Source of the DNA: an uncultured Christensenellaceae bacterium
Lineage (GTDB): Bacteria; Bacillota; Clostridia; Christensenellales; CAG-314
Direction: 5' to 3'
Assembly: GCA_910587795.1 (NCBI GenBank)
Contig: CAJUNH010000002.1
Location: 3,346-67,345, forward strand
DNA length: 64,000 nucleotides
Shown: piece after piece, positions 2,865 through 13,971 of the stretch
How positions within the stretch are numbered: position 1 is the first letter of the stretch
Layout of the letters: each line of letters begins with the position of its first letter
Position numbers and translations under genes: made by a program
Notes under the pieces: model-generated
Databases searched by the model: none
Seen by the model: only the letters and a program-made list of their open reading frames with translations
Told to the model about the DNA's origin: nothing

Positions 2865-3221
2865 TTAAGTAGTATGCGATAAGCGATAATTAGAGATATT
2901 AGGAAAACAATTTTCGTGAAATTTACAATTAAAATATGCTTGTAGCAATGAACGATAGCAGTAAATATTCGGACAAAAGTATGGGTTTTCTAACACATAG
3001 TCATCTTTTTCTTTCAATAATAGCATTAGAGCGGCACAAATTCCCGAACTACGAGAAATCCCATACTCACAATGTACAATAATTCTTTCTGCAACTTGAA
3101 CAAAATTTTCTACAAAGTTTAATATATCTCTCGCATCATTATTAGTTATATGTCCAATTTCCCATCCTTCCACATCATCAAACTGTAATTTAAGTATATT
3201 TAACGTAATTGGTTTTTGCAA
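2865..3221 (-). CDS. Cys-based phosphatase-like protein (HCX5R[S/T] motif), possibly N-terminally truncated
   Basis: VHCEYGISRSSG matches the PTP/dual-specificity phosphatase P-loop. The only start is TTG with no SD sequence, an in-frame stop lies 13 codons upstream, and the length is only 118 aa. Confidence 0.45.
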   Translation of the reverse strand: MQKPITLNILKLQFDDVEGWEIGHITNNDARDILNFVENFVQVAERIIVHCEYGISRSSGICAALMLLLKEKDDYVLENPYFCPNIYCYRSLLQAYFNCKFHENCFPNISNYRLSHTT

Positions 3222-3543
3222 CGAAACTTTACAAAAAAAGTTATATACATTACAGCCTTATTACAATAGAAGATCGTTGCCGTATACAAGATCATTTAAA
3301 AAAGCTGCGGATAAACAGTTAAATTACCGAAGAAAAGCACCGAGATTAAATCCGTATAATTACACTGAAAAATTGCAAACTTTAAAAGAAGAATTCCTTC
3401 CGTCAACAACGATTGGCTGTTTAAACGTAAAAGAGAAGCGCAGATGTATTTTAGAAATATTACCGAGCTGGACGAGGATATGGAAATTATCTGTCCGCAT
3501 TGCGGTAAAATTCATCAATAAAAATAATTAATAGAACTTAAAT

Positions 3544-3574
3544 GAACCCCAAAAGTGTCTAACTTTTGGGGTTC
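3544..3574. terminator. 13-bp hairpin between convergent transcription units (terminator-like)
   Basis: GAACCCCAAAAGT-gtcta-ACTTTTGGGGTTC. The flanking U tracts are weak on both strands. Confidence 0.4.
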
Positions 3575-3673
3575 ACATCATTATTCGGGCGGGTTGTTTA
3601 ATAAATATACAAAACAAATAACCTGTAATTAAAAATTCTGCGTCTATACTGTTTTATTGTTACGGCAGACTGA

Positions 3674-5245
3674 CTATAACAGAGGTGCAAAAATTTTTAT
3701 TACCGAACAAAACAGTCGGTACAGAGCATTGTTTTTTAACATTGTTTCGTCCATTTTAATACACTTTTCCAACGTTTCCTGTATATCTGTCTCCAAATCT
3801 TTTAAGCAATCGCAGCCGTACATCCAAACGCCGTTTTCAAAGTGATGAACAAGACTGCGGTAATCCAAGTTAATAGTACCCACCATACCGCAGTTGCCGT
3901 CGACAAGATAACTTTTTGCATGAATAAAACCCGGCTCGTATTCGTAAATTTCCACGCCCGCTTTCATAAGACGGGAGTAGTATGTGCGAGTCATTGCAAA
4001 AATAATTTTCTTGTCCGGTATATGCGGAGTGATTATTTTAACTTTTACGCCGCGCATTGCCGCGTTTTCGATAGTGGAGCACAGCTCGTTATCTATAATT
4101 AAATAAGGCGTAGTAATATATGCGTAATCGGCGGCGCTGTTAAGCATATTCTGTATTGTCAATTCTCCTATACGTTTATCGTATATAGGCTGCGGACCGT
4201 CGCCGAAAGGCACCACGTAACCGCTTGCGCCGCTTTGAGGTTCTATGTCAGGAAAATACTGTTTTGTAGAAATACTTTTTCCTTTTACATTCATACCGTA
4301 ATCCAACAAAAATAATTCCGTCAATTCCTTTACGGCAGAACCTTCCAAACGTATGCCCGTATCCTTCCAGTGCCCGAAACGCTGCCTTTTGTTGATATAT
4401 TCGTCAGCAATATTTATACCGCCCGTATAGCCGACAACGCCGTCTATAACCAAAATTTTACGATGGCTGCGATTATTAAACTCGCTGTCGGGGTTGCCTT
4501 TAAGCATTGCAAAAGTAGTTGCTTTTATTCCTTGCGCGCGTAACAGTTTTGCATAATTGCCGGGAACTTTCATCATACTGCCGATATCGTCGTAGATAAC
4601 GTACACCTCTACGCCTTCTTCTACCTTTTGCTTTAATACTTCCAAAATAGAATTCCAAAAGATGCCTTCTTCTATAATAAAGTATTCTAAAAAGATAAAC
4701 TTTTTTGCCTTTTTTAAGTCCTCCATCATAGCGGGAAACATCTTGTCGCCCAGATTAAAGTACTTAACCGAGGTGTCGGCAAACAAATGCGTATCGGCAA
4801 TGCCGCACAGCATTTTGGCTTGCATTGCGGCTTGTTTATTTTCTTCAAACAGCCGTTTAAACTGCCTCTCGTCTTCATACGTGTATGCAGAGTGCAAAAA
4901 ATGCTTTATACGTTTTACAAACTTTTTGCGGATTTTGCGTTGAGCAAACATAAAGTAAAGCATAAATCCCGCGACAGGCACAATAATAACCAGCAACAAC
5001 CACGGTATTTTATAATCGGGTTTTGTTTCCTGCGCCACAATATGCACTACCACTAATATCTGCACCGCAAATACCGCAATGTAGCAATACGGAAACATTA
5101 TTATCAGCACGATTAACCCTGCAATAATTATAATCGTTTCCCAAACAGCCAAAAGTACCGCCAAAATATATCTAAACGGAAAATAGCCGTGTCTGCGCCG
5201 TGTATATAATAAGTCGTTAAAAACGTAAGTTTCTTTCTTTTTCAT
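3674..5245 (-). CDS. cls: Cardiolipin synthase (PLD superfamily)
   Basis: Two N-terminal TM helices and two HKD motifs (SHRKILVIDG and IHAKSYLVDG). Length 523 aa. Confidence 0.9.
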   Translation of the reverse strand: MKKKETYVFNDLLYTRRRHGYFPFRYILAVLLAVWETIIIIAGLIVLIIMFPYCYIAVFAVQILVVVHIVAQETKPDYKIPWLLLVIIVPVAGFMLYFMFAQRKIRKKFVKRIKHFLHSAYTYEDERQFKRLFEENKQAAMQAKMLCGIADTHLFADTSVKYFNLGDKMFPAMMEDLKKAKKFIFLEYFIIEEGIFWNSILEVLKQKVEEGVEVYVIYDDIGSMMKVPGNYAKLLRAQGIKATTFAMLKGNPDSEFNNRSHRKILVIDGVVGYTGGINIADEYINKRQRFGHWKDTGIRLEGSAVKELTELFLLDYGMNVKGKSISTKQYFPDIEPQSGASGYVVPFGDGPQPIYDKRIGELTIQNMLNSAADYAYITTPYLIIDNELCSTIENAAMRGVKVKIITPHIPDKKIIFAMTRTYYSRLMKAGVEIYEYEPGFIHAKSYLVDGNCGMVGTINLDYRSLVHHFENGVWMYGCDCLKDLETDIQETLEKCIKMDETMLKNNALYRLFCSVIKIFAPLL

Positions 5246-5250
5246 TATGT

Positions 5251-5901
5251 TTAATCTGTAAACGTTTGCAATACATATATTTGCGGATGCAAATTTTGCG
5301 GAACGTCTTGCAACGTCAAGCTGTCGTTTTGAATTACCTGTATTTGCCGCTTGTCAAACAGCGATAAAAATTTATCTATACCGTCCAACTTAAATTTGTG
5401 ACGGTCTGTGCCGTAATGCATAGGAATAACTATTTTGGGGTTAATTCTATCCACATACCACTTTGCCTCTTGCGCGTCAATAGTATATACACCGCCTACC
5501 GGCAAAAGCAAAACATCGCAGCCGCATATTTTACGGGCAAGTTCGTCGTCTAAGCACCCTATGTCGCCCATATGCACCGCTTTTAATCCGTCTATACAAA
5601 ACACAAACACAAGATTGCCGCCCCGCTTTGCGCCTTTTTCGCCGTCGTGATATGTAGGCAAGGTGCTTATTGCAATATCGTCGGCACAGCAGGTAACTTC
5701 GCAATCCAATACAGCGGGATTATTGATAATATTGTCCATACAATCGTGATCGTTGTGACGGTGCGATACCGTTACCGCATCGCAGCGTACTGCCGGCTTT
5801 TGCAGCCCTACCATATCCGTATTGTACGGATCGCAAACTACGGTTGTGCCCATATCGCTAATTAATCTAAAACAAGAATGTCCCAAATACTGTATTTTCA
5901 T
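5251..5901 (-). CDS. MBL-fold metallo-hydrolase
   Basis: HRHNDHD metal-binding motif. I prefer the ATG at 5901 (MKIQYLGHSCF) over the GTG at 5910 because AAGGAGA lies about 10 nt upstream of it. Confidence 0.8.
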   Translation of the reverse strand: MKIQYLGHSCFRLISDMGTTVVCDPYNTDMVGLQKPAVRCDAVTVSHRHNDHDCMDNIINNPAVLDCEVTCCADDIAISTLPTYHDGEKGAKRGGNLVFVFCIDGLKAVHMGDIGCLDDELARKICGCDVLLLPVGGVYTIDAQEAKWYVDRINPKIVIPMHYGTDRHKFKLDGIDKFLSLFDKRQIQVIQNDSLTLQDVPQNLHPQIYVLQTFTD

Positions 5902-6621: not shown

Positions 6622-7635
6622 ATGAAAGCCTGGATTTTGGAAGAACCTAAAAAGTTACGCTTGCAGGAATTTGGTCCTACGGCGCTGATCGAAAACAAAG
6701 TAAAGGTCAAAATCGAAGAAGTTTTATTTTCTTCTACCGATTACGACATTTACAGCGGAGCGTCTAAGCGCACATACCCGTTTATATTCGGCAGAAACGC
6801 CGTCGGCGCGGTATCGGAGTTAGGCGATAAAAATTCTACTTTACTGCAAAAGCTGGACAGAGTGGTAATAGAGCCGTACATACCCTGCGACGGCTGCGAC
6901 GAATGCCGCGACGGCAACTATCAGGACTGCTCTAACATGCAGGAACTGGGACACAACTGTAACGGTTTGCTGCAAAACTTTATAGATTTGCCCTATGCGC
7001 TGTTGTATAAACTGCCCGACAAACTGTCCAACGAAAAAGCGCTGTTTGTATCGTACGTGGCGTTTTGCTTAAATATCGTAGATTCGCTTAATCTGGAAAA
7101 AGGCAGACATATTGCGATATTTTCCTCTACCAAGACGGGCTTAATACTTGCGCAGCTTGTAGCGTATTATCAGGCGGTGCCGGTATTTATCAGCAATAAG
7201 GACGAGCTGTTGGACATAGCGCGCGACTTAGGAGTGTTTTACTGCTTTAATCCCGAAAAGACCGACGTCGAACACGAAATTTTGATGATTACCGGCGGAC
7301 GTATGTGCAGCGAGTTGGTTTATTTCAGCGACAGCGACTTTAAAATGAAAGACGTATATAACGCGGCGGCGGTAAACGCAAATATTTGCCTTGCGGGATA
7401 TTCCAACAAGGACAGCAACCTGTCCGTTGCGCAGATATGTCAAAAGCATTTAAAAATATTTGGAGTATATAACGGCGCGGGAAATTTCTCTTCCGCTATC
7501 AACCTGCTTGTAACCAACACCGTAAACGTAGATATTTTTATAGGAGACGTAATAAACTTTTCCACTCTCGATAAAGAAATATCGTCCGTTACCCCCGAAG
7601 ACCTGATGCTAAAATCTAAAATTATTAAGGTCTAG
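6622..7635 (+). CDS. Medium-chain (zinc-type) dehydrogenase/reductase family protein with degenerate catalytic and cofactor motifs
   Basis: Start chosen at MKAWILEEP, with GGAGG 6 nt upstream. The structural zinc cluster CDGCDECRDGNYQDC is retained. The catalytic Cys, the GHE motif and the GxGxxG motif are substituted (FSSTD, FGRNAVG, FSSTKTG). Confidence 0.7.
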   Translation: MKAWILEEPKKLRLQEFGPTALIENKVKVKIEEVLFSSTDYDIYSGASKRTYPFIFGRNAVGAVSELGDKNSTLLQKLDRVVIEPYIPCDGCDECRDGNYQDCSNMQELGHNCNGLLQNFIDLPYALLYKLPDKLSNEKALFVSYVAFCLNIVDSLNLEKGRHIAIFSSTKTGLILAQLVAYYQAVPVFISNKDELLDIARDLGVFYCFNPEKTDVEHEILMITGGRMCSELVYFSDSDFKMKDVYNAAAVNANICLAGYSNKDSNLSVAQICQKHLKIFGVYNGAGNFSSAINLLVTNTVNVDIFIGDVINFSTLDKEISSVTPEDLMLKSKIIKV

Positions 7636-7763
7636 CGGCAAATTTATTGTTTTAAAATTAAACGATTAAATTGATTTAACGGAGTACGACAGTATTCAAT
7701 TGCGTCGTATCGCGCTAAAAGTATTTATTTTGTTTAAACATAATTTGTGTACGATATAGTTTA

Positions 7764-7802
7764 AAACGCTTTCAAAGTATCAACTTGAAAGCGTTTTTTT
7801 TA
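7764..7802 (+). terminator. Rho-independent terminator of the MDR-like gene
   Basis: AAACGCTTTCAA ... TTGAAAGCGTTT followed by TTTTTTT. Confidence 0.7.
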
Positions 7803-7823
7803 CACTGTTTAAAAAATTACGCA

Positions 7824-7860
7824 TATAAAAATCCGCAACAGCATACCTACCGTTGCGGAT
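7824..7860 (-). terminator. Terminator downstream of the trxB-like gene
   Basis: ATCCGCAAC ... GTTGCGGAT hairpin, with a U tract on the minus strand (plus-strand AAAA at 7827-7830). Confidence 0.6.
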
Positions 7861-7917
7861 AATATTATATTAAAATATTTACTGCATATACTGCAAATTG
7901 ATATTAATTGGCGAGTA

Positions 7918-8823
7918 CTATTTAACTTTATCCGCATACAGCGCGGCGGAAAAGCCCGCTACTGCGCCGTCGCCCACCGCAGTTGTACATTGACGCACAA
8001 GCTTGGTACGGCAGTCGCCGGCGGCAAAAATCCCCTCGCAGCTTGTTTTGCAATCTTCGCCTGCTAATATATAACCTCTTTTATCCAATTTGACTACGTT
8101 TGCAAATATTTCGTTGTGGGGTTGTTGACCTATCGCAACAAACACTGCGTCTACGTCGACATAAGTTATTGCTCCGTCCGTATCTTTATACGCAACACCC
8201 TTAACATTATCGTCGCCCACCACGTCCGTAACCGTAACGTCGGTTGTCCATTCTATCTTACCGTTATTGACTATTCTGTCCGTTAGCTCCTTATCACAGA
8301 ACAATTTATCCAGCATTGTAAGCATATACACTTTATTGCACAGCTCCGCCAAAAACAACGCATACTGCGCCGCCGAGTTTCCGTCGCCTACAACGCACAC
8401 CGTTTTATTTTTATAAAATGCGCCGTCGCATACCGCGCAATAACACACGCCTTTTCCCTCAAATTGTTCGGCAGAAGCAACAGGCAGTTTTTTGTGGGAT
8501 ACGCCTGTAGAAAGCACTACCGATTTGGTAAAATACGATCCGTACTCGGTTGTTACCGTAAAACCGTTTTCTGCGATCTCCACCGCAGCCGTACCCATAT
8601 CGAATTCCACTCCGTGAGAAATTGCCTGTTCAAACATATTATCCGCAAGGCGCGCGCCCGCTATTTCGTTTACAGAAGGAAAATTTTCTACCCGCGGCGC
8701 GGTTGCAATCTGTCCGCCGAAAGCATTTTGCTCTAAAATAAGAGTGCTTTTGCCTGCGCGTGCGGCGTAAAGCGATGCGGTAAGCCCCGCAGGTCCTCCG
8801 CCTATTATTATAACGTCGTACAT
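7918..8823 (-). CDS. trxB: Thioredoxin-disulfide reductase family flavoprotein (low-Mr TrxR type) lacking the NADPH 2'-phosphate-binding HRRxxxR motif
   Basis: FAD motif IIIGGGPAG, redox-active CAVCDG, second dinucleotide motif VVGDGNSA. The position of E. coli HRRDGFRA reads TMLDKLFC. Confidence 0.85.
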   Translation of the reverse strand: MYDVIIIGGGPAGLTASLYAARAGKSTLILEQNAFGGQIATAPRVENFPSVNEIAGARLADNMFEQAISHGVEFDMGTAAVEIAENGFTVTTEYGSYFTKSVVLSTGVSHKKLPVASAEQFEGKGVCYCAVCDGAFYKNKTVCVVGDGNSAAQYALFLAELCNKVYMLTMLDKLFCDKELTDRIVNNGKIEWTTDVTVTDVVGDDNVKGVAYKDTDGAITYVDVDAVFVAIGQQPHNEIFANVVKLDKRGYILAGEDCKTSCEGIFAAGDCRTKLVRQCTTAVGDGAVAGFSAALYADKVK

Positions 8824-8839
8824 TCTGCCTCGCTTTTAT

Positions 8840-11203
8840 TTACTTTGTAGTTTCTATATATTTGCGTACGTTAGACGCATTTTCGTATACGGCATAGCTA
8901 TCGCCGTCCGCAACTATTAAAGTAGGAGTTAATTTTATATCAAACTTTTTGGACAAGTCGGCATGATCCATAGCGTTTATTACTTCCACGTCGATATGTT
9001 CCTTATTAAGCATAATTTCCGCCATTTTGCAGTTGGGGCAGTTATCCTGAACGAACAGCATCGGGCGTACTACGCACACTTCCGCTTTTTGTTCTTCCGT
9101 CTCGGTAGGCATTAGGCACTTTTTAAGCACACTGCTTTGCGGAGTGTATTCCTTACGCTCTTTCCATTCCTGCGCTTTACCGTCGTTCCAGTTTTGTATG
9201 GGACGGTAATAGCCGGTAATACGGCTGTAAACTTCGGTTTTTTTGCGGCACTTGGGACACTCGTAAACTTCGCCCTTAATGTAGCCGTGATCCTGACATA
9301 CGGAATACGTAGGCGACATTGTGTAGTAGGGAAGTTTATAGTTTTCCGCAATGGTACGCACAAGTTTCATTGCCGACTTCCAGTTAGGCAGACGTTCGCC
9401 CAAGAAAGCATGGAACACGGTGCCGCTTGTATACAGCGTTTGCAACTCGTCCTGAATATCCAACGCGTCAAACACATCGCTTGTAAAGCTTACGGGCAGG
9501 TGCGAGCTGTTTGTATAGTACGGCGTTTCGCCTTTTTTACTGGCAAAAATCATATCGGGATACAGCTTTTGGTCGTGCTTTGCCAAACGGTAAGAAGTAC
9601 TTTCGGCAGGGGTTGCCTCCAAATTATACAAATCGCCGTATTTTTCCTGATAGTCCGATAACCTTTCGCGCATGTGGTTAAGTACGTTTTGCGTAAACTT
9701 TTGCGCGCGTACGTCCGTCATATCGCAAGCCAACCAACTGGCGTTAAGGCAGGCTTCGTTCATACCCACAAGACCGATTGTGGAAAAGTGATTATCGAAC
9801 GAACCCAAATAGCGTTTTGTGTAAGGATACAAACCCGCTTCCATAAGCTTTGTGACGGTAGTACGTTTAATTTTGAGAGAACGCGCGGATATATCCATCA
9901 TTTTGTCTAAACGTTCGTAAAATTCGTTTTCGTTTTTGGACAAATACGCCAAACGTGGCATGTTGATAGTAACAACGCCTATCGAACCGGTGCTTTCGCC
10001 GCTGCCGAAAAATCCGCCGCTCTTTTTGCGGAGTTCACGCAAGTCCAAACGCAAACGGCAGCACATACTGCGTACGTCGCTGGGCTGCATATCGCTGTTG
10101 ATGTAATTGCTAAAATACGGAGTCCCGTATTTTGCCGTCATTTCGAATAAAAGTTTATTATTTTCCGTCTCGCTCCAATCAAAATCTCTGGTTATGGAAT
10201 ACGTGGGAATAGGATACTGGAAACCGCGTCCGTTGTAGTCGCCTTCGATCATCGTTTCGATAAAGGCTCTGTTTACCATGTCCATTTCCTTTTTGCAATC
10301 GCGATAGCAGAAATCCGCTTCTTTACCGCCGATTATGCAGCGTAGGTTTGCCAAATCGTCGGGAACCGTCCAGTCTAGCGTGATGTTGGAAAACGGAGCC
10401 TGCGTACCCCAACGGCTGGGGGTATTTACACCGTAGATAAACGACTCTATGCACTTTTTAACTTGATCGTAAGTCATATTGTCCGCTTTTACAAAGGGGG
10501 CAAGATACGTATCGAAAGAGCTGAACGCCTGCGCGCCCGCCCATTCGTTTTGCATTATGCCCAAAAAGTTTACCATTTGGTTGCAAAGCGTGGCAAGGTG
10601 CTTAGCGGGCGCAGAGGTAATTTTGCCGGGAACGCCGCCCAAACCTTCCTGTATCAGCTGCTTTAACGACCAACCCGCGCAGTAACCCGTAAGCATACTA
10701 AGATCGTGCAGGTGGATTGCCGCAGTGCGGTGAGCCTCGGCAATTTCGTCATCGTAAATTTCGCTAAGCCAGTAATTTGCTGTAATTGCCCCGCTGTTGG
10801 ACAAAATAAGTCCGCCTACGGAATATGTTACGGTGCTGTTTTCCTTAACGCGCCAGTCGGCAATTTTCAAATAATTATCCACTACGCTTTTGTAGTCCAA
10901 AATGGTTTCGCCTACGTTGCGGACGTTTTCGTGCTTTTTGCGGTATAAAATGTATGCCTTTGCAACTTCTACATAGCCTGCTTGTATCAATACCGTTTCT
11001 ACACTGTCCTGAATATCCTCTACCGAAACAACCCCGTCCTTAACCTTATCCATAAAATCGCTTGTTACCTTTAACGCCAACAAATCGATAACGTCGGGGT
11101 TAAACGGCTTGTTCTGCCCTTCAAAAGCGGCTGTGATAGCCTTTGTGATTTTGGAAAGATTAAACTCGATAACTTGACCGTTTCTCTTACGTACTTGATA
11201 CAT
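8840..11203 (-). CDS. nrdD: Anaerobic ribonucleoside-triphosphate reductase (class III) with a C-terminal thioredoxin-fold extension
   Basis: N-terminal ATP-cone (MYQVRKRNGQVIEF), a C-terminal Zn ribbon (CPKCRKK) and the glycyl-radical motif SRITGYY. An extra tail of about 78 aa carries CPNC and a TPT cis-Pro-like motif. AGGAGG lies upstream of the start. Confidence 0.9.
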   Translation of the reverse strand: MYQVRKRNGQVIEFNLSKITKAITAAFEGQNKPFNPDVIDLLALKVTSDFMDKVKDGVVSVEDIQDSVETVLIQAGYVEVAKAYILYRKKHENVRNVGETILDYKSVVDNYLKIADWRVKENSTVTYSVGGLILSNSGAITANYWLSEIYDDEIAEAHRTAAIHLHDLSMLTGYCAGWSLKQLIQEGLGGVPGKITSAPAKHLATLCNQMVNFLGIMQNEWAGAQAFSSFDTYLAPFVKADNMTYDQVKKCIESFIYGVNTPSRWGTQAPFSNITLDWTVPDDLANLRCIIGGKEADFCYRDCKKEMDMVNRAFIETMIEGDYNGRGFQYPIPTYSITRDFDWSETENNKLLFEMTAKYGTPYFSNYINSDMQPSDVRSMCCRLRLDLRELRKKSGGFFGSGESTGSIGVVTINMPRLAYLSKNENEFYERLDKMMDISARSLKIKRTTVTKLMEAGLYPYTKRYLGSFDNHFSTIGLVGMNEACLNASWLACDMTDVRAQKFTQNVLNHMRERLSDYQEKYGDLYNLEATPAESTSYRLAKHDQKLYPDMIFASKKGETPYYTNSSHLPVSFTSDVFDALDIQDELQTLYTSGTVFHAFLGERLPNWKSAMKLVRTIAENYKLPYYTMSPTYSVCQDHGYIKGEVYECPKCRKKTEVYSRITGYYRPIQNWNDGKAQEWKERKEYTPQSSVLKKCLMPTETEEQKAEVCVVRPMLFVQDNCPNCKMAEIMLNKEHIDVEVINAMDHADLSKKFDIKLTPTLIVADGDSYAVYENASNVRKYIETTK

Positions 11204-11271
11204 CTTTTGATCCTCCTGAGACTATTTTTGACTTACTTTTTTACTTTGCTCCAAATTTGCGGTGCCTCACT

Positions 11272-11301
11272 ATTGTATAATAAGGTATTGTTGTTTGTCA
11301 A
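11272..11301 (-). promoter_or_regulatory. Candidate nrdD promoter (TTGACA-18 nt-TACAAT)
   Basis: On the minus strand, TTGACA spans 11301-11296 and TACAAT spans 11277-11272, about 70 nt upstream of the nrdD ATG. Confidence 0.5.
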
Positions 11302-11309
11302 GGCTTAAA

Positions 11310-11325
11310 ACACAATATATTGTGT
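11310..11325. promoter_or_regulatory. NrdR box 1 (perfect 16-nt palindrome)
   Basis: ACACAATATATTGTGT matches the NrdR operator consensus acaCwAtATaTwGtgt. It lies 9 nt upstream of the candidate -35. Confidence 0.7.
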
Positions 11326-11341
11326 TATTTTTTTATTTTTA

Positions 11342-11357
11342 ACACAATATGTGGTAT
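11342..11357. promoter_or_regulatory. NrdR box 2 (half-degenerate)
   Basis: ACACAATATGTGGTAT starts 32 nt from box 1, about three helical turns. This is the usual tandem NrdR-box spacing. Confidence 0.5.
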
Positions 11358-12065
11358 GCGTGGCATAGTGTTTTGTCTGGCATAGAAATAAAAAAATATG
11401 AAAAACAAAGAGGCATATTGTAATATTTATAACGAACGTTGTTCAGTACAGGCAAATAAAAACCAACTCCTAACAGCACCGATTTATATTCGCTGCTATC
11501 AGTTCTTTATGTAAGAATTCAAATATAATTATACGTAAAAAAATTATATTCGTAATTTAACAAAGCACGATTATTTTTTTTACATCGTAAAACGGCCGAT
11601 TGTAATTTACCGATAATGACAGCATTGTTTTAAGATATAAATATACGCTTAACAAAACCTATCGGTTTTGTCCGTATTGCGTATACGCATTGCTTTTTAA
11701 GCAAAACGGCTTAGCACACACTATATAATTTCTTACACTGCCGCAGTCCATAATACGATGTATAAACGAACGATTAGAGGAAAATTGTTATATATAAATA
11801 TTTTTTAAAAACAATTATTAAATACTGAACCAAAGCAAATTTATACCAACAAGCTACAGCCGCATTTAAAACCGTCGTTACGCATACGTAATTAATTGCG
11901 TAGTCTATTTTGTACCGTTAGGTTGCTGCTTGTTAACCTTCACCCACCCAAAGCCGCATTATAAATTTTTTTCACTAATCGTAATACGATGTAATGATTT
12001 GTTTTTATAGTGAAGGTTTGATCGAATACGTGATAAAGAAAAAAATAGAGCTTAGTGATATTTTG

Positions 12066-12170
12066 TAAAAGAAAAAAGACGAGTCGGTAAACTCATCTTT
12101 TTTCATCATGAAGAAGAGAGGAAGTTTTTTGACCGTTTGATAAGTCAAAAACACAAAATGATATAAAAAC
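12066..12170 (-). ncRNA. Candidate small RNA of about 105 nt (promoter, hairpin, pyrimidine-rich stretch, terminator)
   Basis: The predicted transcript contains GUUUUUGAC-10 nt-GUCAAAAAC, then single-stranded CUUCCUCUCUUCUUC. It ends in the terminator AAGAUGAGU-UUACCG-ACUCGUCUU plus UUUUUU. That terminator pairs perfectly with one G-U on the minus strand and has a C-A mismatch on the plus strand. Confidence 0.3.
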
Positions 12171-12176
12171 AATAAC

Positions 12177-12204
12177 AGTATATCACGCTTACAAAAAAAG
12201 TCAA
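12177..12204 (-). promoter_or_regulatory. Strong orphan promoter (TTGACT-16 nt-TGaTATACT) driving the candidate sRNA
   Basis: On the minus strand, TTGACT spans 12204-12199 and the extended -10 TGATATACT ends at 12177. No ORF lies downstream. Confidence 0.45.
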
Positions 12205-12633
12205 TACAGAATTTTAAATTTTACATAAAAAATTAGATAATACCATTAAATTTTTTCATAGAATTACTTTTCGGTAAATACTGCTTGTCATCAAGAGATG
12301 CCTTTTATTATTTTGTATAAAACAACGGCTATAATGTTTTATAATTTGATATAATAATGGTTTTAAGAAATTATTAAAGTATAATAAAAACAAATATAAA
12401 TAATACGTTCTAAAAAAATCACCCTTTTTTGTTAATTATTTTTGAAAACAATAGTCAAACATATTTAAATGCTTTTTTTAGTTTCCTGCATTTACGATTA
12501 CTTCGCTATTACTGTCGGCGCCTAAAATTATAAAGAAATAAATAATAAACGGTATTTTTATATAAGATTACGCAACTGCACTGTGTTTTGCTAAGTTGCT
12601 AAACTATTTTGCAAAAAAGTTTTGCGTATATTG

Positions 12634-12662
12634 TTGACAAGTTTGCGTTTATTTGATATGAT
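12634..12662 (+). promoter_or_regulatory. tRNA operon promoter (TTGACA-17 nt-TGaTATGAT)
   Basis: TTGACA at 12634-12639 and the extended -10 TGATATGAT ending at 12662, about 60 nt upstream of the first tRNA. Confidence 0.6.
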
Positions 12663-12721
12663 AATTAAGCTTTTGACAGCGTAGAGGCGTTAATGCCTGC
12701 GAATTGTCGGGAAAGCGATGT

Positions 12722-12798
12722 GGCGGCGTAGCTTAGATGGTTATAGCGGCCGGTTCATACCCGGCAGGTCGTTGGTTCGAATCCGACCGCCGCTACCA
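12722..12798 (+). tRNA. tRNA with CAT anticodon (elongator Met, or Ile2 if lysidine-modified)
   Basis: Anticodon stem GCCGG/CCGGC, loop TTCATAC, T-arm GTTGGTTCGAATCCGAC, CCA encoded. It has a G1-U72 pair and lacks the three G-C pairs of initiator tRNA. Confidence 0.9.
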
Positions 12799-12803
12799 AA
12801 TAC

Positions 12804-12878
12804 GGCTCCTTGGTCAAGCGGTCAAGACATCGCCCTTTCACGGCGGTAACACGGGTTCGATTCCCGTAGGAGTCACCA
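12804..12878 (+). tRNA. tRNA-Glu (TTC)
   Basis: GGCTCCTTGGTCAAGCGG... with anticodon loop CTTTCAC, T-arm ACGGGTTCGATTCCCGT, and CCA encoded. Confidence 0.93.
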
Positions 12879-12881
12879 TAT

Positions 12882-12957
12882 GGGGAGTTAGCTCAGTTGG
12901 GAGAGCATCTGCCTTACAAGCAGGGGGTCACAGGTTCGAGCCCTGTACTCCCCACCA
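12882..12957 (+). tRNA. tRNA-Val (TAC)
   Basis: GGGGAGTTAGCTCAGTTGGGAGAGC..., anticodon loop CTTACAA, T-arm ACAGGTTCGAGCCCTGT, 3' ACCA. Confidence 0.93.
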
Positions 12958-12964
12958 TACAGTG

Positions 12965-13033
12965 CCCAGTCGAACCCGAAAGGGTTTGAGTGGGTATTTT
13001 AATTAAAAAACACGCATTTGGGCGTGTTTTTTG
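12965..13033 (+). terminator. Two tandem terminator hairpins after the tRNA operon
   Basis: CCCAGTCGAACCC-GAAA-GGGTTTGAGTGGG followed by TATTTT, then AAAACACGC-atttgg-GCGTGTTTTTT. Confidence 0.7.
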
Positions 13034-13341
13034 CGTTTTAACGGCTATTTTACAAAGGTTCGTAAGGATATGTATTTTAACTATGGACAACCAGAACGAA
13101 CATTTCGGTTTAAGTTATTTTTTTAGTCAATATCAGTTTAACGCATACAATTACCTAATACGCCGATTTTTATTTTTTATTTGATAAGTGATAATCTCGG
13201 TAAGCCTGCGCGTTATCCCGTTTTTAGCCGTTGGGTGTGGTTAAAACGATTTGGTTAAACATTGAAATTATATGTCGTTTGTGTTATACTTTATTATAAT
13301 GTAACTACGATAAACAGTAATTTAACGGTGCAATAATAACT

Positions 13342-13971
13342 ATGATACTATTGAAAGAATACATTAAAAATCCTTGCCGTTCGTTGAGTATTCCTTATTG
13401 GAAGCAACGGAACATTAAAGTACCCGACAATATAAAAATCGTGCATAATGATGAGTATAATGCTGCTGATTTCAACGGTTATATTGACGAGCAGTATTTT
13501 CGTTTATATCACGATTTACAATCGGTACGGCGGATAGAAAGGAATGACATAGGTATTGTTGTCGTTAATGATGATATGCTAGATACGATTGTTGATATTA
13601 TCAATAAAAGTTATAACGATTTATCGGTAACAAAAGAGCAAATGAAAAGTTATATGCAAACGCCCGTATATTGTTCCGATTTGTGGATATTGCTTAAAAA
13701 CAAGTCGGGTACTTACGTCGCTTGCGGTATAGCCGATTACGACAAAGAAGCAAACGAAATGATCTTAGAGTGGATACAAGTTATTCCGTCTTGTCGTGGT
13801 CGCGGATATGGACAATATATTGTAAATGAGTTGCTTTCACGGGCGCAAGGGCAAGCAAAATTTGCAACGGTATCGGGTAAAGTAAATAACACAACCGCAC
13901 CCGAAAAATTGTATCGCAGGTGCGGTTTTATTGGCAACGATATTTGGCACATACTATATAAAAACAATTAA
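13342..13971 (+). CDS. GNAT family N-acetyltransferase
   Basis: Acetyl-CoA-binding motif in QVIPSCRGRGYGQYIVNELL (Q/R-x-x-G-x-G/A). Length 209 aa. Confidence 0.7.
   Translation: MILLKEYIKNPCRSLSIPYWKQRNIKVPDNIKIVHNDEYNAADFNGYIDEQYFRLYHDLQSVRRIERNDIGIVVVNDDMLDTIVDIINKSYNDLSVTKEQMKSYMQTPVYCSDLWILLKNKSGTYVACGIADYDKEANEMILEWIQVIPSCRGRGYGQYIVNELLSRAQGQAKFATVSGKVNNTTAPEKLYRRCGFIGNDIWHILYKNN

Follow-up and report, generated by a model that had tools for sequence, protein, structure and literature searches.

A class III ribonucleotide reductase (RNR) that carries a redoxin domain at its own C terminus is encoded in a 64,000-nucleotide stretch of the genome of an uncultured Christensenellaceae bacterium (contig CAJUNH010000002.1 of assembly GCA_910587795.1), which we refer to as the window. 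The gene, nrdD, lies on the (−) strand and is followed at once by a gene for a thioredoxin reductase (TrxR)-like flavoprotein; the fused redoxin and the adjacent gene suggest an enzyme with a thiol-based electron supply of its own. The feature is real, functional-looking and widespread, and is best filed as a class III RNR capable of thiol chemistry, whose redoxin has been internalised and whose partner reductase is atypical. A first-pass annotation, made from the letters of the window and a list of its open reading frames (ORFs), had placed a CPNC thioredoxin-fold module containing a TPT motif behind the glycyl-radical motif SRITGYY of NrdD, and ORF and motif mapping reproduced the coordinates of NrdD and the positions of all three motifs. 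The parts of the protein, in window coordinates, are these:

8840..11203 (−), the nrdD::redoxin coding sequence, 787 amino acids (aa) plus stop, one ORF with PF13597 and NF006126 matches.
10928..11197 (−), the ATP-cone, residues 3-92, an allosteric on/off domain (PF03477, E 1e-25; ratio of nonsynonymous to synonymous substitution rates, dN/dS, 0.08).
9146..10843 (−), the NRDD catalytic barrel and glycyl-radical domain, residues 121-686 (PF13597; alignment to 4COI).
9065..9145 (−), the linker, residues 687-713 (27 aa), a flexible tether as judged from low predicted local distance difference test (pLDDT) values, dN/dS and variability.
8843..9064 (−), the thioredoxin-fold redoxin domain, residues 714-787 (74 aa), as judged from a tail-only model, Foldseek, profiles and dN/dS.
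9029..9040 (−), CPNC (C722, C725), residues 722-725, in TGCCCCAACTGC, just before the N terminus of helix 1 (sequence, models).
8921..8929 (−), T759-P760-T761, the cis-Pro loop preceding strand 3 (sequence, homologues, model).

In a Pfam scan the NRDD domain matched residues 121-686 with an E value of 5e-188 over profile positions 1-562 of 562, and the cut-offs of two NCBIfam models were exceeded, those of NF006126 ("ribonucleoside triphosphate reductase"; 1118 bits against 548, residues 1-687) and TIGR02487 (506 bits against 326). The NRDD domain, the glycyl-radical motif with its zinc ribbon and the presence of NrdG in the genome identify the protein as a class III RNR.

The redoxin tail did not reach the threshold of any curated Pfam or NCBIfam redoxin model. 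When the last 86 residues were scanned alone, Thioredoxin_2, Thioredoxin_3 and Glutaredoxin matched below threshold at E 3e-5 to 2e-4 (PF13098, 24.6 against a cut-off of 27; PF13192, 21.9 against 24.8; PF00462, 21.7 against 22.9), and PF00462 is present in the precomputed annotation of more typical members of the tail family of fused NrdDs. Structure prediction, which the first-pass annotation had named as a way to probe its claim of a thioredoxin fold attached to NrdD, gave just such a fold. An AlphaFold2 model of the tail alone reached a pLDDT of 96.9 with the topology β1-α1-β2-α2-β3-β4-α3 and placed CPNC immediately ahead of helix 1; the predicted β-α-β-α-β-β-α order, the CxxC at the N terminus of helix 1 and the cis-Pro loop are those of a thioredoxin fold. 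The model was built from a diverse tail alignment supplied by a representative-library search, which itself gave mostly C-terminal NrdD fragments and small ORFs, full-length fusions being clustered under other representatives. A Foldseek comparison of the model with the PDB returned almost only thioredoxin-fold proteins, among them thioredoxins, fold-switched KaiB and PDI domains (template modelling score 0.65-0.79 for most, probability ~1.0). The tail-family profile had its best structure match in the C-terminal unit of protein disulfide oxidoreductase (PDO; E ~3e-12); it matched the MJ0307-type small thioredoxin at E 3e-9, as well as many other thioredoxins, and NrdH (1R7H) weakly at E 1e-5.

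Conservation points the same way. C722, P723, N724 and C725, together with T759-P760-T761, are invariant in 32 close homologues; in 24 distant homologues, 35-52% identical, both CPNC cysteines and the cis-Pro are invariant, and the Pro of CPNC is kept in at least 90%. Medians of pairwise dN/dS among 25 species-level orthologues were 0.04 for the catalytic core, 0.08 for the ATP-cone, 0.09 for the redoxin domain and 0.31 for the 27-residue linker, values of which only the ranking is reliable because dS is near saturation. The linker differs in length and sequence between lineages and is predicted to be disordered, and unfused NrdDs end where it begins. A full-length AlphaFold2 model made with the 32 close homologues had an overall pLDDT of 50.3 and an unusable core, with residues 711-787 at 81-87 and residues 657-707 below 50. 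The models and the dN/dS ranking indicate that the tail is a predicted thioredoxin-fold redoxin domain under purifying selection, and the picture is one of a functional redoxin on a flexible tether.

The hallmarks of NrdH are a CVQC-type motif and a WSGFRP signature, and a classical glutathione-dependent glutaredoxin has a CPYC-type motif together with glutathione-binding TVP and GG-x-DD segments. We rejected both identities for the tail, the former on a TIGR02194 score of 17 bits against a cut-off of 86, the CPNC motif and the lack of a WSGFRP-like segment, and the latter on CPNC, TPT, a C-terminal end (...ADGDSYAVYENASNVRKYIETTK) without GGxDD and a TIGR02181 score of 18 bits against a cut-off of 90. 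The first-pass annotation had spoken of a thioredoxin/NrdH fold; the thioredoxin fold holds, but the motifs of NrdH and of classical glutaredoxins are absent. As a separate observation, the linkers of several lineages contain pairs of cysteines (CEKHC, CKC, CTC and CKTDC; loci L018, L019, L020 and L023), and that of the window's clade (9065-9145) contains C697 (in KKCL) and C711. These cysteines are not conserved family-wide; they are reminiscent of the shuttle cysteines found at the C terminus of class I and II RNRs.

The partner gene and the candidate signals around the two genes are as follows:

7918..8823 (−), a low-Mr TrxR-like flavoprotein, 301 aa (TIGR01292, 306 bits with a cut-off of 343; PDB matches).
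8428..8439 (−), C129-A-V-C132, the flavoprotein's redox-active disulfide (sequence, alignments).
8290..8319 (−), TMLDKLFCDK, replacing the NADPH 2'-phosphate motif HRRxxxR (alignment to 7AAW/5UWY and E. coli TrxB).
11272..11301 (−), a σ70-like promoter, TTGACA-18-TACAAT, 11 of 12 matches (motif search).
11311..11356 (−), two NrdR-box-like palindromes, 11311-11324 exact and 11343-11356 with 2 mismatches, their centres 32 bp apart (motif search).
7831..7860 (−), an intrinsic terminator, a 13-bp stem and a T run, after the TrxR-like gene (motif search).

The first-pass annotation had taken the next gene for a TrxR homologue and had seen no nrdG beside it, and it was right on both counts. The TrxR-like gene starts 16 nucleotides past the nrdD stop, scores 306 bits with TIGR01292 and has TrxRs as its best PDB matches (E ~1e-60), and an NrdG2-type radical-SAM activase (TIGR02495, 196.5 bits, cut-off 131) is encoded on contig C5, unlinked to nrdD. 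The protein has the FAD-binding GGGPAG (residues 8-13) and C129-AV-C132 that mark the FAD/CxxC scaffold of low-Mr TrxB; it lacks HRRxxxR and stays under the equivalog cut-off of TIGR01292. Among 38 aligned partner proteins the CAxC disulfide is kept in all, and T[LM]FD[KR][LF]F takes the place of HRRxxxR in 37, the remaining one also being without HRRxxxR; GxGxxA is altered to GDANTA in some lineages. Anaerobes are known to have TrxRs without HRR, for which the donor is NADH, ferredoxin or unknown (PMC5627308). Because HRRxxxR is absent, the donor of the TrxR-like protein is probably NADH or ferredoxin/flavodoxin, although it is not assignable from sequence alone. Elsewhere, the genome encodes a standard WCGPC thioredoxin (L004, 1492-1803) and a second TrxR-like gene (contig C6, L007, 1486-2388, (−)), which is likewise without HRRxxxR and under the TIGR01292 cut-off; since this holds for both TrxR-like genes, the organism seems to be without a canonical NADPH-dependent thioredoxin reductase.

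The promoter lies just downstream of the tandem NrdR-box-like palindromes, and nrdR is present on another contig (TIGR00244, 196 bits). Across the window as a whole the NrdR-box pattern is no more frequent than expected by chance, and the case for the pair rests on its position and spacing. No terminator comparable to that at 7831..7860 was found on the coding strand between nrdD and the TrxR-like gene, and an Rfam scan of 7500-13500 found no riboswitch upstream of nrdD, three tRNAs being the only matches. To judge from these signals, nrdD and the TrxR-like gene are a predicted bicistronic operon, co-transcribed from one promoter to one terminator. The genome (1.55 Mb, 94% complete) has a single PF13597 match, which is this NrdD, and no match to PF02867 of class I/II RNRs was found in it; as the sole RNR of the genome, NrdD makes its operon the one that must supply all deoxyribonucleoside triphosphates (dNTPs).

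The residues on which the chemistry of NrdD would depend were located by alignment to the Thermotoga maritima enzyme (4COI), to homologues, or by reading the sequence:

10679..10681 (−), Cys175, the β-A active-site cysteine, equivalent to T. maritima C125 (4COI alignment; invariant in 32 homologues).
10055..10066 (−), the finger loop M380-C381-C382-R383, equivalent to T. maritima S328-C329-C330-R331 (4COI alignment, homologues).
9617..9619 (−), Glu529 in NLEATPAE, equivalent to T. maritima E495 (alignment; position per PMC9669993; invariant).
9248..9298 (−), a zinc-ribbon-like C636-x2-H639 ... C649-x2-C652 in the glycyl-radical domain (sequence reading; invariant in homologues).
9212..9214 (−), Gly664, the glycyl-radical site in SRITGYY (sequence; invariant in 32 homologues).

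The finger-loop motif classes of class III RNRs, and the position of E495, which has been proposed to supply the proton in thiol-dependent NrdD2, were defined by Burnim et al. (PMC9669993). According to the summary by Aurelius et al. (PMC4493059) of Wei et al. 2014, NrdD2 has a third active-site Cys and a Glu, and some of its members retain a Met. Enzymes with MCCR and Glu, MCCR accounting for 83% of double-Cys class III sequences, have the components for either formate or thioredoxin, and absence of the finger-loop Met is the marker of "thioredoxin only" clades (PMC9669993). The first-pass annotation had proposed checking the signature that separates formate-dependent from thiol-dependent subtypes, and by the T. 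maritima alignment NrdD has the third Cys (C175 with C381-C382) and the Glu (E529), not the formate-type signature. Its finger loop has the double Cys and keeps the Met (M380-CCR), in place of the Met-less loop of the "thioredoxin only" clades. The active site is thus assigned a thiol-capable "NrdD2 with Met" signature, which permits thiol-dependent chemistry without proving it.

Two further observations concern NrdD cores in related genomes. One genome that has the fused enzyme also encodes a second, unfused NrdD paralogue of 695 aa, 64% identical (L072, G021:C46:93900-101700, ORF 3061-5145 (−)), in which the double-Cys finger loop is gone, DVRDM-LRDVE standing in place of DVRSMCCRLRL; it keeps the β-A Cys, the Glu and RITGYY, neither nrdG nor a TrxR gene adjoins it, and it may be inactive or repurposed. 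In some fused NrdD-redoxins (P0190, 1314 aa; P0124; P0131) inteins with HNH or LAGLIDADG endonuclease domains lie inside the NRDD core.

How often the fusion occurs, a question that the first-pass annotation had left to a survey, can be answered for the order and the class, in neither of which is the fusion rare. Of 201 order genomes sampled, 70 (~35%) contain a match to the tail; they cover 42 of 118 genera and many families, and almost all of these matches sit inside open frames of 790-870 aa. A search of the same sample with the NrdD core separates two clades. In the first, at least 71% identical to the query, the tail is always present where the contig allows; in the second, ~50% identical and 700-750 aa long, there is no tail. 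A TrxR homologue lies directly downstream of the fused nrdD in all 38 loci examined (11 of 11 at the order level and 27 of 27 at the species level), which come from several families of the order, whereas in the unfused clade nrdG lies directly downstream in 17 of 17 loci and a TrxR gene in none. In the class sample, 76 of 399 genomes (19%) gave 77 strong tail matches, separated by a clear score gap from ordinary free thioredoxins; 65 of these are in frames of 784-868 aa, and most others are apparently truncated at contig ends. Among 20 fused loci of other orders of Clostridia, nrdD is followed by a TrxR homologue in 7 and preceded by nrdG in 11. A protein-database search seeded with one fused NrdD from other orders returned 5,438 protein clusters of ~790-aa NrdDs with this tail, many of them with a precomputed Pfam Glutaredoxin match and with source labels that include Acetobacterium, Acidaminococcaceae, Ruminococcaceae and Oscillospiraceae. 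The frame is continuous in 68 close protein clusters, and the carriers of the fusion include complete genomes; AFA47237.1 of Acetobacterium woodii is a fused NrdD-redoxin. By these counts the fusion constitutes a major NrdD subfamily in Clostridia.

Several outlying matches were seen in the course of the survey. A. woodii has a second, truncated copy ~16 kb from its fused nrdD, consisting of the C-terminal half of NrdD and the redoxin tail (C1:532050-532274, a 409-aa frame; AFA47252.1, 408 aa). An 817-aa fused NrdD, 63% identical to the query, has a tail only 26% identical to it and neither TrxR nor nrdG within 3 kb (L076, G140:C1:681800-689900, ORF 3010-5460 (−)); the same genome has an unfused nrdD-nrdG pair (L071). 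A search for related loci with the tail of this one protein yielded, besides close relatives alone, weak matches, 28-32% identical, to small redoxin-like proteins in seven Listeria genomes (L051-L057), which are probably unrelated glutaredoxin-like genes, since neither NrdD nor TrxR is nearby.

Building on the domain architecture, fold, conservation, operon structure, synteny and active-site residues described above, we propose that the window holds an operon of two genes under NrdR control, which encodes a self-sufficient class III RNR. The unlinked NrdG2-type activase would activate NrdD by placing a glycyl radical at G664; ribonucleoside triphosphates would be reduced by the double-Cys and Glu active site (C175, C381/C382, E529), each turnover leaving an active-site disulfide; the CPNC domain, on its linker of ~27 aa just after the glycyl-radical domain, would re-reduce that disulfide, in cis or across the dimer; and the oxidised CPNC would be recycled by the co-transcribed low-Mr TrxR-like flavoprotein through its FAD and CAVC. 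We infer here the target of the redoxin (the turnover disulfide), the reductase of the tail (the TrxR-like protein) and the electron donor. The model of a turnover disulfide reduced by the tethered CPNC domain, itself recycled by the co-transcribed flavoprotein, is in our judgement probable by a modest margin over even chances. It has precedents in the NrdD of Neisseria bacilliformis, which uses thioredoxin (Trx) and TrxR according to the citations in PMC4493059 and PMC9669993, and in a glutaredoxin (Grx) fused to NrdB, a working RNR reductant (PMC6187632). A more specific version, in which electrons from a non-NADPH donor (NADH or ferredoxin/flavodoxin) would pass through the HRR-less flavoprotein and the tethered CPNC to a Cys175-Cys381/382 disulfide, the reductant being internalised throughout a major Clostridia lineage, is more tentative and, we judge, somewhat less than even in its chances. 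The first-pass annotation had claimed disulfide-based turnover with a dedicated electron chain: the attached redoxin and the co-transcribed TrxR homologue uphold the parts of such a chain, and the turnover chemistry is unproven.

A number of observations weigh against the tethered-redoxin model. The finger-loop Met of formate chemistry is retained, and PMC9669993 treats the combination of MCCR and Glu as ambiguous; unfused sister NrdDs of the order have active-site motifs identical to those of the fused clade; the adjacent TrxR is missing from 13 of the 20 fused loci of other orders; the genome encodes formate-tetrahydrofolate ligase (FTHFS); the fusion is present in A. woodii, a formate-producing acetogen; and docking of the tail is invisible in the full-length model because the core is too poor. 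Because the unfused sisters share it, the active-site signature leaves the reductant undecided, and we rejected it as a discriminator of fused from unfused NrdDs; with motifs identical in both clades, the fusion is the mark of a subfamily and an operon type, not of a different active site. Pyruvate formate-lyase (PFL) and Fdh-alpha were not found in the genome, which weakly favours the model. An argument from "no formate metabolism" could be upheld only in part, PFL and Fdh-alpha being absent and FTHFS present, and FTHFS here together with the fusion in A. woodii means that lack of formate is not a general driver of the fusion.

In one alternative, formate is the turnover reductant, acting through Met380 and Cys175, and the redoxin serves activation or maintenance, keeping C636, C649 and C652 or the finger-loop cysteines reduced and so letting NrdG install the radical, or the enzyme recover from oxidative insult in the gut. 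The Met retained in MCCR fits this alternative, as do the attachment of the tail ~50 residues after G664, beside the zinc ribbon, the plain availability of formate in some hosts (FTHFS here, and the formate-producing A. woodii) and an earlier reported activating effect of thioredoxin on E. coli NrdD, of which a passage in PMC4390871 takes note. Yet the same zinc-ribbon-like Cys/His pattern is common to fused and unfused NrdD relatives, and the unfused ones manage without a tether; a reductase dedicated to the enzyme and co-transcribed with it points to a stoichiometric flow of electrons, not occasional repair; and neither PFL nor Fdh was found as an internal source of formate. We consider this alternative unlikely, though a serious contender. 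Less likely again, and in our view improbable, is a role for the CPNC domain as a redox sensor or regulator that reports the thiol/disulfide or oxygen state and gates activity without supplying catalytic electrons, for example if its oxidised form blocked the glycyl-radical domain. Such a role would suit a tether beside the mobile glycyl-radical domain, a protein that already bears one regulatory add-on in its ATP-cone, and the lack of an adjacent reductase at most fused loci outside this order; it sits poorly with the strict synteny with a disulfide reductase within the order. A CPxC dithiol motif with a cis-Pro is, moreover, typical of active oxidoreductases, and no precedent for a sensor of this kind was found in the literature searched. 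That the fusion arose by read-through, frameshift or assembly error, or that the tail is neutral and decaying, is scarcely credible: the sub-threshold Pfam scores in its favour belong to this particular tail only, and the conservation data exclude it, with the same frame in the 68 close and 5,438 wider clusters, carriers in 70 of 201 order and 76 of 399 class genomes, complete ones included, a dN/dS of 0.09 and invariant catalytic motifs.

Comparison with known systems places the tethered-redoxin model among thiol-dependent RNRs. The NrdD2 enzymes of N. bacilliformis and T. maritima (4U3E, 4COI) share with it the β-A Cys, the finger-loop double Cys and the Glu, and the reductant proposed for them is a Trx-type protein recycled by TrxR; the match of the NrdD here to that of T. 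maritima was only 139 bits over the core (HMMER). Unlike these enzymes, the one described here has its redoxin fused C-terminally and its reductase in the operon, MCCR with the Met kept instead of SCCR, an N-terminal ATP-cone, and a partner TrxR without the NADPH motif. In Facklamia ignava a Grx::ATP-cone::NrdB fusion, whose Grx is a working reductant (PMC6187632), likewise joins a redoxin covalently to an RNR component, but that enzyme is of class I, and its Grx, which is glutathione-linked, sits at the N terminus of the radical-generating subunit. The RefSeq survey in the same paper (Table S1) lists, unstudied, a single "Glutaredoxin:NrdD" from Lachnospiraceae bacterium TWA4 (subclass NrdDd), which may have the same architecture as the protein here; against that one case we find thousands, and in most of them the tail scores close to the Pfam Grx threshold or under it. 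The NrdD3 of Methanosarcina barkeri, as cited in PMC9176816 and PMC9669993, is likewise a class III RNR that pairs a small Grx/NrdH-like redoxin with a dedicated non-NADPH reductase, a ferredoxin:disulfide reductase; it differs in lacking the Glu, in having QCCR/A, in its separate redoxin and in a reductase of the Fe-S FTR type rather than a flavoprotein TrxR homologue. By analogy, we propose that the system would work like NrdD2 with Trx/TrxR and like the F. ignava Grx-NrdB fusion.

The partner reductase and the tail have relatives of their own. DvTRi, the NADH-dependent DvTR3 and the clostridial FFTR (PMC5627308; PDB 6GNA-6GND) have the same low-Mr FAD/CxxC scaffold with the NADPH motif replaced, though the replacement here is T[LM]FD[KR][LF]F, as against TQ/NGK in TRi, and the sequence of the TrxR-like protein matches canonical TrxRs (207 bits) better than FFTR (118 bits). 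Its presumed substrate is the NrdD domain, whereas that of the other atypical TrxRs is free thioredoxin. The best structure matches of the tail profile, MJ0307 (1FO5) and the PDO C-terminal unit (1A8L, 1J08, 2AYT; E 2.5e-12 to 3e-9), share the minimal four-strand thioredoxin fold and a CxxC, but they are free-standing or tandem, have other CxxC sequences, and none is attached to an RNR.

The literature searched, itself incomplete, held no description of a C-terminal NrdD-redoxin fusion, of its prevalence or of a dedicated HRR-less reductase, and the layout, common in Clostridia, has apparently never been tested at the bench. Public labels of these proteins read only "ribonucleoside triphosphate reductase", and the architecture is under-reported because the tail falls below Pfam thresholds in this lineage. 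A natural redoxin fusion with a dedicated reductase in the operon amounts to a Rosetta-stone type of argument for thiol-based turnover, and it makes testable an open question, that of the reductant of double-Cys class III RNRs that keep both Met and Glu. Two genes and NrdG would be enough for a minimal reconstitution system, and A. woodii, another carrier of the fusion, can be cultured; for an RNR specialist the arrangement is unsurprising in principle, yet it offers a clean experimental handle on the reductant. With the operon as the sole dNTP route in the genome, the electron donor matters directly for growth when the cell meets redox or oxygen stress. Were the non-NADPH route correct, the widespread MCCR and Glu class would normally work by protein-thiol rather than formate chemistry, much of the dNTP synthesis of gut Clostridia would be tied directly to the low-potential redox pool, and the lineage with an internalised reductant would comprise thousands of sequences and about one-fifth of the sampled species.

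Beyond the two genes, an AT-rich stretch of ~1.2 kb (11480-12720) lies between the nrdD promoter region and the cluster of three tRNAs (12722-12954, (+)); it contains no ORF longer than 55 aa and had no Rfam match.

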